Source: Podarcis bocagei
Taxonomy: Eukaryota
DNA: 64,000 nucleotides
Assembly: GCA_964188305.1 (NCBI GenBank)
Contig: OZ076886.1
Strand: one strand, 5' to 3'
Shown here: positions 1 to 6,947 of the stretch, piece after piece
How the letters are laid out: each line of letters starts with the position of its first letter
Numbering within the stretch: the first letter of the stretch is position 1
Notes under the pieces: model-generated
Database searches by the model: none
The model's input: the letters and a program-made list of their open reading frames with translations, nothing else
What the model was told of the DNA's origin: nothing
Translations under genes and position numbers: made by a program

Positions 1-552
1 TGGGATTACAATACTGACCATTGAGGAAATCTGCAAGATAAATGCCCTCAGGGCAGCGGACAATACTAATAGTTGCAATTGAGGCAGCTAAAACTCCACT
101 TTGATGGCCCCACTCCACCGAGTGTATGACCCCCTGGAGTCATCCGATGCCCAGGACCACAGACCTCCAAGCACCTTAAATCAGAATCCTTCTTTCGAAG
201 AGGACCTAGCCAAAATAATTAGGGGTTTGTCTTCAAACAGCCAGAAAGCCAAAAATGCAATCTCAGAGTGAGCGAGGGTGTCCACGGGAGGGGCAGAGAA
301 CGCCTAGGGAAAAAGCCAGTGCGCCATCTGCAGGCAAGAGGGTCACTGGAAAATGGAATGCCCAAAGGCCCCACGCCCGACACACCCCACTCCCCACAGG
401 GTGGGAACAGTAACCAAAGTTCCGATGCCTATGTACCCAGCCATGAGCCTCAGCGCTACAGCCACAAGCCCAGCTCTGAACTCCAGAAAAATCAAGGCAG
501 AGGGCAAGAACAGGGATCTGTGCAGGGATACCCCATGGCCTGAACCCCACCT
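1..552 (+). pseudogene. gag: gag remnant 1 (capsid fragment, nucleocapsid zinc knuckle) ending at the probable start of protease
   Basis: 1-15 = WDYNT; ~62-98 reads ILIVAIEAAKTP; 317-367 = QCAICRQEGHWKMECPK (CX2CX4HX4C), preceded by RLGK with a frameshift; PEP at ~539-547 resembles the start of gamma-type protease; stops and frameshifts present; no major homology region. Confidence 0.85.
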
Positions 553-1169
553 CTCCAGTCCTGAGAGACGAAAAAAAAAACTTACTAGGATAAACCAGGC
601 CCAACAAACGCAGGTTCCCAGAAGCTGCCTGGCCCTGGTCCAACAATGGTTGCTCGGCACACAGAATGAGGTTTCTGAAAATGATTTGCTCAAAGACTGT
701 TGCAGAAGCAAGTGCTCATTCATGCAAGTAACAGGACATCAGCTTTTTTTTTTTTCTTTTCTTTCTCCTTGTGCCAGGCGCTTGGAGGCAGCTTCAGAGC
801 GTTATCTCTTGGCAGCTATTCCAAGAAGGACACTGCTGCATTCAGCCAGCTACCCTGAACCTCACACTTTCTGGATTTACACTTCAGCCACATAAACCCA
901 GAAGGCCAAGAGTTACCCACCCCCCTGCCCAAAAGTACTAACCTGAAGAAGTGACTTTCTTAAAAGCAAGTGAATGCTTTCTGTGAACTTTGTCAAGTTT
1001 TTTTTCTTTTTAAGGTGCAATTTTACTCTGAAAAAGGAGCCGCAGCATAGCATAGGAATTGATACTTTGAGGAACTTGAAACTTTGCCAGAAGCAAGGAG
1101 TGCATTGTTCTTTCTACAGACACTGGCAAATGAACTGAAATTTGCAACATGGCTTAGAGTTCTGAAGCC

Positions 1170-1443
1170 CGAGCACATGAGGCTGCCAATGCCCCTATCA
1201 TAAAAAACTGCCTTTGTAGCCCAAGCGGCGCCCGATATCCACCAAAAAAAAATGAAGGTTTCTTTTTTTAAGGGCCACACCCTTGAATGGATGCTGGAAT
1301 TAGCCCAGACCATTTATAATTAGAGGGAAAAAGAGACCCAGAAGAAAAAGGAGAAGTACCAGGCAGAGAAGTTGATGGCCCTGAAGACGGTAGGTCCACC
1401 GTTAGGAGAAGAAGAGGAGGGCGAGGCCGCTTAGGAAAGAGCA
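1170..1443 (+). pseudogene. gag: gag remnant 2 (capsid C-terminal domain and charged region)
   Basis: From 1207: TAFVAQAAPDIHQKKMKVSFFKGHTLEWMLELAQTIYN*REKETQKKKEKYQAEKLMAL, matching the F..Q.APDI..KL motif of class I Gag; then RRRRGGRGRLGKS in another frame. Confidence 0.8.
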
Positions 1444-3285
1444 ACAGCATGCCTTCAAGGATTTGAAAAAGGCATTGCAACACTGTTTGTGTGACCCCGC
1501 ATGCAGTCCCAGCACTGCTTGACATGAAGGGTACCTATTTCCTCTCCCAAGCAAAAATGAGAAAGTGCCAGATGCTATTGTTGCACCCGCGTTTGAAGTT
1601 CCAGGTCACCACCGCCCTCAACCCAGCTACCCTATTACCGGTAGGAGAAGGTGAGGAGCCCACGCATGACTGCATTGAAGTAATGGACGAAGTATATTCC
1701 AGCAGGCCTGATCTCAAAGACAAGGCAAACGAGGCTGGGCAGCGGAAGGCAGGCTATGCAGTGGTAGCCCTGGAAGACCAGGTGATCGAAGCAAAGTCAC
1801 TCCCACCTGGAACATCGGCCCAGCTGGCAGAACTAACTGCGCTTACCAGAGCCCTGAGCCTGGCAAAGGGACAGAAGATAAACATTTATACAGATTCTAA
1901 ATATGCATTCCTGACTTTACATGCCCATGGAGCCTTATGGAAAGAAAGAGGTTTGCTTACCTCCAGAGGAAGCCAGGTGGCCCACCCACAAGCCTTATTG
2001 AACCTTCTGGATGCTGTATGGGAACCCGAGGCAGTGGCAGTTATCCATTGTTATGGACACAAAACTGGACCAGGGAAAGTGGCCAGAGGAAACCGATTGG
2101 CAGACAGAGTAGCCAAGGAAGCAGCCCGAGAACTGGCCCCCACCTCGGTTATTGGAGCACTGGTCCCAGAAGAGATTTTAAGCACTACTGACAAGCCGGC
2201 CTACACAAAGCAGGAAAGGGACACTGCAGATGCCCAGGAGTTGACATTGTCCAAAGAAGGATGGTACCTTACCCCTGATGACAGGATATGGATTCCGGAG
2301 TCCCTTTCTCGGCAGGTTACTCAGAGATACCATGATTCAACCCACATAGGACCAGATGCTACAACCAAGCAGCTGGAAAAATGCTTCTATATAGCCCACC
2401 TTTACCAACTGGCAGCCCAGATCTCCAGGAAATGCCTGCTATGTCAAAAGAATAATCCCAGAGCCGGACCACTGGCTCCCCCAGGGATTCAGCACAGTGG
2501 AACTGCACCTATGGAAGATTTTGTCGTGGACTTTACTGAATTACCCCGTTGTGGACTGCACCGCTACCTGCTGGTAGCAGTGTGCACCTACACCGGATGG
2601 GTCAAAACATGGCCCACAAAGACTGAAAAGGCATTTGAAGTAACCAGGTGCCTGCTTAGGGAAATCATCCCTCGCTATGGATTGCCAAGGTCCGTAGGAT
2701 CTGATAATGGACCAGCATTTGTTCATGCAGTCCTACGGGGGCTGGCGAAAGCGCTCCAAAGAATCAGCTGTCCAAGCTGACACAGGAGACCGGGTCTAAT
2801 TGGGTGACCATGTTGCCCTTGGCGTTACTCAGGGTCCGCAGTCTCCCGTCAAAACGGACCCATCTGTCACCCTTTGAAATTATATTTAGGAGACCGGTCC
2901 CATATGTCAAAATGTTGTCCCCACATGCTGGTCAGGATATGCAATTGAATAATTAAGTCCAGATATTCTTCCGAGTTTTCTTTTGTCTCGACAGGTGGAC
3001 CCAGGCTCGCAGCTCGCAACCCCTGTGTGTTGGCTGCATCAGTTCGAGCCAGGTGACGAAGTGTGGGTGAAAGACTGGCAGCGAGCCCCCCCCCTACAGC
3101 CTTGCTGGAGGGGACCATACACTGTGCTATTTGTGGGTCCACCCTACTCAGTAAAGAAAACCATTTCAAACTGGACAGTTACACCAGATCCAGAGAACTC
3201 CCTTCAGCTGATTATCTCCAGATGCCTGGCAGACGACCGCTCTGCTGATATCACACCGGAAGCTGATATCTCAACGCACAGCTGA
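1439..3285 (+). pseudogene. pol: pol remnant: RT thumb fragment, connection domain, RNase H, integrase
   Basis: 1439-1483 EQQHAFKDLKKALQH; ORF 1491-2780 has LNPATLLP, RPDLKD, SAQLAELTAL, IYTDSKYAF, GNRLAD, integrase HHCC (HDSTH...CLLC), VDFTELP, SDNGPAF; continues out of frame as NQLSKLTQETGSNWVTMLPLALLRVR...LSPFEI; 2983-3285 has PGDEVWVK...WRGPYTVL. Confidence 0.95.
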
Positions 3286-3423
3286 AGAATTGGATGGGAG
3301 GGGCGCCCGCGGGCAGCGTCCCCAACGTGAAAATCCGTGCCGGGACTAATCCAGGAAGTCCACCAGGACATTTAATATTTCCATAAGGACTTTCTCTTTT
3401 CTTTTTTTTCTGTTATCTGCTCT

Positions 3424-3831
3424 ATGTCCCACAGCCCTGACCCCACTGAGCCATACCGCCCTTATTGGCCTGATGGCCTCTGCTACGACTGGTTCGTCTT
3501 GCCGGTGGTAAGAGATGGCGTGCTCTTTGGCTATTGGAAACTGGGGTTTGATGAGATTGCCGTATTGAGACACCCCACTGCCCCGTTGTGGCTCCTCTCC
3601 CACACCACTGTCCAGCACGCGTGGATAGTGCTCATACGGGAAGTTGCAGAGACGATCGAAATCTATCGAGTTCTGGACCACTCTTGTTGTTGTGGGAGGG
3701 TAGTCAACTGTTATCTGGGAGGTAGAGCACTGTACCAACCTCATTTGATAGACCAGGTCCTATTCTTAATCCAGGTGATAGATGGGACGGAACCTGTCTT
3801 GATGCAAGTATTGCAGGGGTGGGAGCCTTAA
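3424..3831 (+). CDS. Putative ERV accessory ORF (135 aa, unknown function) between pol and env
   Basis: Uninterrupted ATG-started ORF with globular-protein-like composition; long polypyrimidine tract ~3391-3430 and CAG at 3432-3434; no motif recognised. Confidence 0.45.
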   Translation: MSHSPDPTEPYRPYWPDGLCYDWFVLPVVRDGVLFGYWKLGFDEIAVLRHPTAPLWLLSHTTVQHAWIVLIREVAETIEIYRVLDHSCCCGRVVNCYLGGRALYQPHLIDQVLFLIQVIDGTEPVLMQVLQGWEP

Positions 3832-4034
3832 CCAGGTGTGCATTGAAATTGCTAAACAAGTGCCAGTAAGAATTGCCACCTCTGGTCACTAGGGAGGTAG
3901 CACGTGAGTTCAATCCACCCGACAGGGTTAATAGGAAAATTGACCCACATAGTGGGAGCATCAGCTCACTGGTGGGCTCTCATCCTTGAGGCTCAACAGG
4001 TAGTCGGGCACAAATATCAGTGGGCTCTTCAACG

Positions 4035-4681
4035 ATGAGCACACCCCCTGAATGTTGGTGGGAGGAACCATGGAGATATTGGGTTTGGTGGGTAGGAGTG
4101 ATATATACCGCCCTTGTCATATGGATGCTCTCGTATTTCTGTTGGCATGAACGGTATCGTATTTGTGGGAAGAGACGTAATCCATCTATACCTTTGATGA
4201 TTCTCCTTTTCTTTTTAGTTGAAGAGCCCACATGTGTATTGACGCAGGCAAGAAAAAGTTCCCCGACCTCCCTTGCCGACATTTCCCATTTGATGACTAA
4301 GTGGGGTGCCCATAACTCCTACAATAGGTGGTTACAAATGGCTGAAATGGAGCATGTTGCTTCAACATTTCAGACCATGGCGAGGCTATCCGTGATCTGG
4401 CAGCAAGAATTGAAAAGGTAGCACATGTCCCTGTACAAACCTGGGAGGGCTGGGATATGTCTTGGTTGGACGGCATCTTCCCAGGTGGATGGATGGGGAG
4501 AATATTTACTATGGTGATAGGTCCAATTATGCTTCTATTGCTTTTCTGCTTCTGTATGCCCTGCTTGATGCAATGTATGCAAAATATGATGGAGAAGATG
4601 ATGTCTCGCATGATGGGACCTCACGTGCTTGCTTTCATGAGAGATTATAGACCCCTACCCCAGAACGAACCTAAGTATTAG
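4035..4681 (+). pseudogene. env: env with large internal deletion (leader and start of SU joined out of frame to the end of TM)
   Basis: ATG at 4035 (MSTPPECWW...), hydrophobic IPLMILLFFLV, NRWLQMAE; from 4346 in another frame NGACCFNISDHGEAIRDLAARIEKVAHVPVQTWEGW, membrane anchor IFTMVIGPIMLLLLFCFCMPCL, tail YRPL, stop at 4679-4681. Confidence 0.88.
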
Positions 4682-4690
4682 GTTGTTCAT

Positions 4691-4705
4691 AAGAAGAGGA
4701 GGGAG
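4691..4705 (+). other. Polypurine tract
   Basis: aagaagaggagggag, just after the env stop and immediately before TG. Confidence 0.8.
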
Positions 4706-5273
4706 TGAAGGGAGAGGGAAGGGTTGCTTTCTATATTTTATACCTAAGAAGGATCTTCATATATACCTAAGAAGGATCTTCATATATACCTAAGAAGGAT
4801 CTTCATATTCTCTGTAAGTTAATTTCTGAGCTAAGGGCCCCTCAAGGAATGCAAGATAAGACAGAGACTGTAAGCTAGAAATAGCCTCGCCTTAGGAATG
4901 CAAGATAAAAAAAGACACAGACGGGAGGAGACGGGGGGATGCAGGACGCTTAGAAAGAACAATAGGGAGGGCTGTTTTAGAAGGCTATAGACATGCTAAA
5001 AATAAGTTGAAAACTTCTTCGGGAGGGCGTGGGGAGGAGGGAGAGAGCCCACTCAAGGTATAAGAAAATCTGCAGAGGGGTATTTTCTGGGCAGTCAGTT
5101 TTTCCAGAATTTATTCTGCTGGCTGTCTCCTGTGCACAGAGAATAAAACTGCTTTCCTCCAAAGAAGGATCTTTCCTGGTGTTTACTTTTACTCTCTCTC
5201 TGGATCTGAGGACGCGGGCCAACGATTCCCTGGCATGGACTAGGCTCAGCCTACAGTAGGACTGGGCCTGACA
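4706..5273 (+). repeat. 3' LTR of the ERV (3' boundary approximate)
   Basis: Starts TGAAGG after the PPT; 23-bp tandem repeats 4741-4808; TATAAG 5059-5064; AATAAA 5142-5147; candidate end ...cctgaCA at 5273. Confidence 0.8.
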
Positions 5274-6947
5274 CCTCTTGGGGCCCTTTGTGTTTGATAT
5301 TCTTCATTACTGCTTTGTCCCAGAGGATCCTTGTTTGTTTGTTTGTTTTTAAAGGTCTAGGTATTTATGTAGCCCAGAGCTGTTAAGTTCTACCAGTTCA
5401 CTTGCCTATATTGAAACCCAAAGCGCTACTACCTGTGTACCAAGATATTGCCAGGCCAATATCATGCACAGCCACAAAAACGTTCCCCCCACCTTCAACG
5501 TCCATTCTGCGGAGGACTGGTTAATGCTAGTTAATATTTGGTTTGGTCTTCTAATATTATAGTAAAGTGATAGCCTGGGCACCACCAACTCAAAAATCTG
5601 CTGTATTTCAATCCTTCCCTTCCTTCAACGTCCACTCAGTGGAGCTAACCAAAGGATTGTTTTGTTTCTGTTGGGTCTGTGAGGCAATTTGCAACGAAAG
5701 AGGCTTATACATTGCTTAACAAGAGGCTTGTGCAAACACTTTCTCTTGTGCCCCTGTTGTGTTGACAGGACAGTGAGAAAGCATCATGCTTCTCCCAAGG
5801 GAACGAAGCAGCTAAAATCCTGCTAGAGACAGCATACCTCTTCCTGGGCCTGAGGAATCGTGTTGGCATGTGGAACAAACACAGGGAACAGAGAGCATGT
5901 AAAAGCAGGGGGAAACATGAGGCCCTTTCCTGATTTCACACAGCCTTTGCTACCACCAGCCAGCTATTCTGAAGAGGGTTGTTTCTGTGTTCTTACAGCA
6001 GCAGGCCAGACAGTGCGGTGGGAAGGTTTCAAAAGGATTAGATAAAGGGAATATTCACAAATTCATCATGGCCTTCCAATACTGTGAGAATAACTCAGGG
6101 CAGGAACAGGAACAGCACATTCCATTTTGCTGCTCCTGCTCCCCCGCCGCTGGCGCCACAGCTCTCTTACCTGCATGACGCAGCAGTGCCCACAAAGCAC
6201 CAGCAGTGGTGCCAGCTTCTGGCAAGATCTCATCAGAAGCCAGTGCCACTTTTCCACTGGCAGCAGATGCAGCAGGGAGCGGGAAGGTGCAGCAGAGGCA
6301 ATGTGGGTGCTGCTTCTTGGGCTTCTGCTGCTTGAGGCAGCACCTTGCCTCTTCAAAGGGCCAGGCCTAGGCAGGAATTCCATTTCTCTCAGGACCCAGC
6401 ATAGGGCAAAATTTGCTTTTCTGCTTCTGCATCTTGGCAGTGATTTGTATTGTGTTTCATTCCAACAAAACTCCTTGGTCCCTCTGGCAATTGAGGACAG
6501 TGATTATTTGGGAGGTTGGGGAAGCAGGATAGGATTCCCAGCACAACGGAATAAAAACCCTCCTTCTACATTATAGGTTTTCCTGAGCAGGCTTCATGCT
6601 GTTTTCTCTTCCGTGCAGTACTTGAATCCCATCCAGGAATGAGGCAAAATTATTCTGTAATTTACTTTTGTGCCAAGAGTGCCAGCTCTGAACGTATTCC
6701 AGGGGTCCATTAATGCAAGCTTTATTTGCTTCTGTCAAGGGCACTTCAGAGCTGATGCCACATAAACATTGTGCTGCGGGCGATCCCCGGTCCCATCATG
6801 AAATCTGGCTCGGAACAGAGGAAGGAATTAGAGTAAAGCCTAGGCACCTTTCTTTCTTTCTTTTCTTTTCTTTTTTGTACAGGAATCCTTTGTTAAGAGA
6901 AGTTTTTACCACTGATGCAGCAATCCTTCATTCAGCCCCCAACTAAA

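Follow-up and report, generated by a model that had tools for sequence, protein, structure and literature searches.

Gamma-type retroviruses are the textbook simple retroviruses. Gamma-type genomes have been described as typically simple (PMC9967133), and the accessory genes listed in review belong to delta-, lenti-, epsilon- and spumaviruses and to HERV-K (PMC1224870). For HIV-1, leaky scanning between vpu and env has been described (PMC2657110), and a crocodilian endogenous retrovirus (ERV) with KIT-ligand and WEHV with cyclins are carriers of captured host genes (PMC4299795). Here we report an ERV family of the lizard Podarcis bocagei in which an open frame between pol and env, orfA, is conserved, is separate from both neighbours and has a paralog, orfC; the copy from which the analysis started is a mosaic. 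A literature search conducted outside subscription journals, Repbase and Dfam returned no account of the orfA family.

On best-hit scores of the reverse transcriptase (RT), the group is placed among class I, gamma-like ERVs: the Pol of a full-length sibling provirus (L140) scores 713 bits against XMRV/MLV RT, 177 against foamy virus and ~60 against HIV. Gag and pol occupy one frame across a single stop in five siblings (L130, L131, L133, L140 and L143), and the Env of L140 and of L130 contains a CxxC motif, a furin site, an immunosuppressive-domain (ISD)-like motif and CX6CC; a regex search of L168 and L175 found neither CX6CC nor ISD. The MLV-like Pol, the gag-pol frame and the gamma-type Env are shared with MLV/XMRV and ERV1. 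The interval from pol to env differs, as it is free of genes in a simple gammaretrovirus, whereas here one to four extra ORFs occupy 0.4-1.5 kb. With selected extra ORFs beside open gag, pol and env, this is probably a complex retrovirus. A sequence-only reading of the locus had assigned the ORF to a class I ERV as a candidate accessory gene, an assignment supported by the MLV/XMRV-like Pol, the purifying selection on orfA and its separateness from env.

The window (the whole stretch of DNA analysed, 64,000 nucleotides from an assembly of 507 contigs and 1.6 Gb) opens inside the provirus, whose parts all lie on the + strand and whose 5' LTR is upstream, ~1.65-2.2 kb before the window. The 3' LTR (4701-5255) matches the 5' LTR at 554 of 555 bases. 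A pol remnant at 1467-2780 comprises RNase H and the integrase core (Pfam RNase_H, rve and Integrase_H2C2), with internal deletions that appear as gaps against L140, and an integrase C-terminal remnant (Pfam MLVIN_C, E=2.7e-7) extends from 2953 to the pol stop at 3285, where the sequence-only reading had ended the pol frame. The env remnant (4035-4681; Pfam TLV_coat) retains its leader and has lost most of SU and TM, with the end of TM at 4346-4681 and the deletion junction, relative to L175, at 4207-4348; pol and env both carry deletions in this provirus. The env ATG at 4035 was also placed correctly, as the same N-terminus heads the 517-aa env of siblings, and so was the 135-codon ORF, orfA, which runs from the ATG at 3424 to the stop ending at 3831 and encodes a putative 135-aa accessory protein. 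It lies in a cassette (3333-3900) that has no match to family E in this stretch. The remainder of the spacer, left unannotated in the sequence-only reading, is not blank and contains remnants of two other accessory genes: an orfE 5' remnant (3294-3386), now a 30-codon upstream ORF with the N-terminus of the 117-aa orfE of L171, L172 and L175; a deleted orfB remnant (3818-3890) that has no start codon and in which, by eye, the beginning and part of the middle of the L130 orfB (138 aa) can be recognised; and an orfE 3' remnant (3901-4038), for which the orfE search of the same genome matches C2:89903805-89904032 (E=1.7e-10). The U3 region of the LTR contains three exact copies of a 23-nt tandem repeat (4739-4808), and a signal-peptide-like, ATG-led stretch ~1 kb past the 3' LTR (6301-6360) is possibly a host exon.

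Searching the genome with the orfA protein gave at least 150 loci at 72-100% identity (150 scored of 276 candidates), and ~116 of the 150 scored matches are, by hand count, stop-free across the whole protein. The length of orfA is not by itself beyond chance, because the window has 26 further stop-free runs of at least 130 codons outside orfA; it is comparison between copies that makes the argument. All eight representatives of the subfamilies, which we name A (deleted, like the window copy, or full-length), A2, B, C and D, have no stop in the orfA frame and two to five stops in each other + frame. Pairwise dN/dS (w) was computed over the colinear core, using orfA codons 1-88 for representative pairs; L079 (non-colinear) was left out, and duplicates of the L076, L127 and L145 type were treated separately among the dropped rows. 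Over codons 1-88, w was 0.49 between the window copy and family C (p=0.011), 0.36 between B and C (p=3e-4) and 0.34 between D and C (p=2e-4), compared to 0.77-1.03 in the two other + frames of the window-C and B-C pairs. The mean between subfamilies was 0.30-0.60, a favourable outcome of the conservation and dN/dS check that the sequence-only reading had suggested, and within full-length A, B and C w was 0.10, 0.20 and 0.22, respectively. Two closer pairs, unlike the distant ones, also showed low w in a shifted frame (window versus B, +1: 0.49, p=0.08; window versus A2, +2: 0.36, p=0.045). Compared to the RT control (w=0.03), which is far tighter, the constraint on orfA is moderate. Purifying selection was not seen within the deleted A and A2 groups, where w is ~2 on very few changes; since the LTRs are also identical at all but one position, the open orfA of these groups reflects youth. 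The suggestion that orfA had been kept open while the enzymes and Env were deleted is therefore weak. Selection shows instead in the full-length lineages, in family B and when lineages are compared with one another.

The frame of the C-terminal ~25 residues of orfA differs between families, and an 'HSCCC cluster' singled out from the window sequence is not conserved, its histidine being replaced by arginine in 9 of the 15 other rows of the orfA/orfC alignment (A1) and its first cysteine alone being kept in 13 of 13 orfA rows. Among family B copies (L061-L100), a 24-nt duplication of the orfA start is frequent and many copies are frameshifted at a G run past the Cys cluster; L081-L100 were chosen as truncated matches, and their breakage rate is not representative. 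We consider it very probable that orfA is a genuine accessory gene that begins at its own ATG.

The two LTRs of a provirus agree at 99.8-100% of positions, over 181-714 bases, in 13 of 13 copies, and the family is very young and was recently active. Open gag, pol and env flank the cassette in three family C proviruses (L130, L131 and L133), and in two family A proviruses (L140 and L143) orfA is flanked by pol (1205 aa) and env (517 aa), both of them open; the pol genes of full-length A and C copies share only 59% identity. The family C spacer, 1504 nt between pol and env, contains in order orfA (126 aa), orfB (138 aa, beginning at the orfA stop), orfC (130 aa, the orfA paralog) and orfD (73 aa, with one hydrophobic segment and overlapping the env start), followed by env. 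The weakest protein match to orfA (P0006; 36%, E=5e-8) is orfC, a separate gene downstream of orfA. Alignment A1 has 20 invariant columns over 16 rows, with conserved W, Y and P and a paralog identity of 30-36%, and orfA and orfC form two clades with support of 100/100. The other pol lineage has a single native gene between pol and env, orfE (117 aa); an invariant YSCGC motif anchors its alignment with orfB, and relatives of both are present in Logan. The profile of orfA/C shows no relationship to that of orfB/E (probability 0.2%), and outside its own genome orfA matches only unnamed Logan proteins, at 52-79% for orfA types. Families E and F, full-length or young, lack both orfA and orfC, and orfA is therefore not needed by every lineage.

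Several further variants of the block were noted. orfD (L130:7718-7939) is lysine-free, with an acidic tail and a vpu-like layout, and has a relative in family B. In families A, E and F, env opens with a long W-rich leader containing two hydrophobic segments (window 4035-4230; L140:7081-7290), the first of which may derive from an in-frame fusion with an orfD-like piece, although the match of orfD to the family A leader (E=0.01) is only suggestive. orfE (L171:6417-6770, L175:6487-6840, L135:7042-7395) is nearly full length in ~47 of 151 matches by hand count, with w of 0.41-0.54 in two pairs, and its family F relative (L168:6400-6783) is open over 127 codons, with no in-frame ATG at the start, which may be GTG. 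The family C provirus L134 lacks orfA and the orfB start, its orfC is frameshifted, and a different retroelement-like ORF replaces env.

This arrangement recalls the lentiviral vif/vpx/vpr/vpu block, in that small genes lie between pol and env in both. The duplicated pair orfA/orfC has a counterpart in vpx and vpr, and orfD, like vpu, is a small membrane ORF with a weak ATG that overlaps the env start. Unlike the lentiviral accessory genes, orfA has no Pfam or PDB sequence match and stands in a gamma-like backbone, and its model is a beta-meander, whereas Vpr and Vpx are helical bundles. The crocodilian ERV and WEHV likewise have an extra ORF in a virus that retains its core genes; theirs, however, are recognisable host genes, whereas sequence comparison gives orfA no named relative, and its companions are a paralog and two further types of unnamed gene.

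The window copy joins two of these lineages. Positions 35-3332 are 96.4% identical to L172, a deleted provirus with an open orfE and no orfA; positions 3418-3869 are 87.6% identical to family B; and similarity to L172 returns after ~3900. orfE is the accessory gene native to the window backbone, and its DNA match to L172 stops at 3332. From this split similarity, recombination most likely put the orfA cassette, gained from the other pol lineage (families B/C), in the place of the middle of orfE, with the orfE ends at 3294 and 3901-4038 most likely left over after the insertion. The orfA-bearing proviruses have four different primer-binding sites, presumably those for tRNA-Glu, -Gly, -Pro and -His.

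The predicted main splice acceptor lies inside integrase (2969-2995, AG at 2993-2994), a position that corresponds to that of the MLV env acceptor. Using a crude consensus score of our own on the 368 AGs of window positions 1-4700, this site (2994/2995) ranks second with a score of 8.3, and in L140, L130, L175 and L062 no acceptor before the cassette scores better than an equivalent site. In six of six family C copies, the ~1.8 kb from the integrase acceptor to env contains six ATGs, none of them before orfA: the four accessory starts, one 4-codon ORF and env. The 1504-nt spacer has 6 ATGs compared to 17.3+-3.3 in shuffles (0 of 1000 as low), and position -3 is a pyrimidine at all four accessory ATGs and a purine at the env ATG. 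This sparse ATG map points to leaky scanning on one spliced mRNA. A subgenomic mRNA would be spliced at the integrase acceptor, orfA would likely be read from its own weak-context ATG on that mRNA, and ribosomes would scan leakily past the weak ATGs of orfA, orfB, orfC and orfD to env. Such a map suggests one polycistronic mRNA, in contrast to the many splice forms of lentiviruses, and leaky scanning of the HIV-1 vpu-env kind would here extend to five genes. The picture is less clean elsewhere: in family A, where short upstream ORFs are also present, ATG depletion is only mild (7 versus 11), and in the window copy two short ORFs that begin with ATG precede orfA and five more lie from orfA to env.

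RNA reads 90-99% alike to the provirus cover orfA in two single-cell runs of organism B, from 6% of each run, mostly from another organism and carrying no strand information. The runs placed 919 and 763 reads on the provirus, with a depth over orfA of 9-18 per direction compared to 1-3 just upstream, a rise that can come from subfamilies sharing only the cassette. A 343-nt joint in these reads was considered as a splice and rejected, because it matches a genomic deletion in subfamily A2. This env deletion (equivalent to window 4173-4517) is thus found in the runs of organism B as well, and the deleted family is therefore common to both organisms.

In the model of the orfA protein (mean pLDDT 67.6, residues 11-80 at 71-85), a beta-meander of five to six strands lies between one helix and a second, C-terminal one. 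The protein has no membrane segment (maximum KD19 1.5) and a net charge of -7, and its invariant residues are mostly aromatic or proline, together with C20, H50 and E79, a candidate catalytic triad. Searches with orfA returned no Pfam family at E<=1 or E<=5, its profile had no match among PDB sequences at E<=10, and ESM Atlas gave nothing usable for orfA or P0002. The structure search that had been proposed was equally unproductive, as Foldseek found no match to the model at E<=0.001 among viral models and the PDB. In VIA-align against 48,161 chains the best Z was 5.6 (gC1qR/p32; rmsd 3.6, 89 aligned), tied with polo-box and other sheet-plus-helix domains; the modelled arrangement is a common one and, as a model, shows neither a new fold nor a function. 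The orfB/orfE model (pLDDT 40) was too poor for a fold search. A search for a captured host gene gave only unnamed Logan proteins, with the own-genome search saturated by ERV copies among the 150 candidates scored of 276. The C-terminal helix of orfA could be read as BC-box-like; folding orfA with a retrocopy of Elongin C found in this genome scored 0.00 and gave no verdict. That retrocopy (L179:1450-1788, G000:C5) is intronless and open over 112 codons, with a few substitutions. The family C accessory cassette is lysine-poor (4 versus 10 expected, pooled P=0.03, no single protein being significant), and PMC10169902 links lysine scarcity to proteins of the ubiquitin system.

Several other explanations of orfA were weighed against these data. 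The sequence-only reading had suggested that splicing behind a 'strong' acceptor enters orfA at 3435, as a second exon. The long pyrimidine tract and CAG exist (3388-3434, with CAG at 3432-3434 after 37 pyrimidines in 45 nt), and six of seven family C copies have the AG, with a score of 5.1. In the window, however, the site at 3434 scores 3.7 and ranks only 8th of the 368 AGs; the AG at 3433-3434 is present in 27 of 86 copies, all in families A and C, and absent from 59, whereas the orfA ATG is kept in 85; L128, with no usable orfA start, was left out of this comparison. Splicing at 3435 would remove that start codon, the ATGs of the predicted first exon are all closed by stops ahead of the donor-like site in both the window and L130, and none of the joints listed from the two single-cell runs lands at either 2995 or 3435. 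Second-exon entry is thus very improbable. No copy checked in the families that lack the AG (B, A2 and D) has more than 34% of env, and A and C include full-env copies, a correlation over five related lineages that are not independent tests; the CAG at 3434 may be a real secondary acceptor, whose use would skip orfA and would serve the genes downstream of it. A viral regulator of RNA export or transactivation, in the manner of Rev, Rec or Tat and in place of a host antagonist, would also make orfA a real gene and strikes us as unlikely. A genome that expresses several of its genes from spliced RNA may depend on control of this kind, and orfC has an arginine-rich tail and a net charge of +9, but orfA is acidic and has no arginine-rich stretch, its start codon rather than an acceptor into the coding frame is what is conserved, in contrast to Tat, Rev and Rec, and families E and F do without orfA and orfC.

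The remaining explanations deny that orfA is a gene of its own. As the near-identical LTR pairs and the deleted families devoid of visible selection would allow, the cassette could be a cis-acting RNA element left open by youth; frame-specific dN/dS below 1 at a dS of ~0.6, W/Y/P columns kept by a paralog at 30-36% identity and the absence of any match in an Rfam search make this very improbable. Equally poor, or slightly poorer, prospects attach to a C-terminal extension of Pol. In family B, integrase and orfA often stand in one frame uninterrupted by stops, giving open frames of up to 744 codons, and in the window orfA and pol also share a frame, yet three stops separate them there, pol of full-length A and C copies stops 137-180 nt before orfA in another frame, and the family B fusion follows, by eye, the loss of the integrase end. 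The chance that orfA is a stray fragment of env SU, or the shadow of an antisense ORF at 3346-3759, is almost negligible: although orfA lies just upstream of env and is overlapped by this 137-codon antisense frame, it shows no similarity to a sibling's complete env (best E=1.3) and siblings carry orfA next to a complete env, which argues against an SU origin, and the antisense frame is broken in representatives of A2, B, C and D, with w of 0.7-1.2.

For orfA as an accessory gene, the product may well be a small intracellular adaptor directed against a host antiviral factor. Its lack of a membrane segment, charge of -7, few lysines and vif/vpx/vpr-like position point in this direction. A gene that is dispensable, duplicated, moderately constrained and traded has the look of a host antagonist such as vif, vpr or vpx. 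By this analogy, orfA could act in the manner of Vif, Vpr or Vpx: it would bind a host protein and might deliver it to ubiquitin-dependent decay, a role that we propose tentatively as a genuine possibility. More broadly, and with some doubt, an undescribed complex gamma-like lineage may have independently built a four-gene, lentivirus-style block (orfA with orfC, orfB/orfE and a membrane protein resembling Vpu), read by leaky scanning from one spliced mRNA and swapped between distant backbones by recombination, with orfA founding a new family of restriction-factor antagonists.

MLV-like enzymes together with as many as four genes under selection in the pol-env interval mean that genome complexity arose again in the gamma branch. 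Because the cassette moves between backbones with 59% Pol identity and four primer sites, it is a natural example of how accessory genes are traded and of polycistronic translation, and because the copies are nearly unmutated, the proteins are open to study singly, as the genome holds them. If the antagonist reading is true, the target of orfA would expose a reptile antiviral pathway, and the partners of these proteins would name antiviral factors in a vertebrate group in which few are known.
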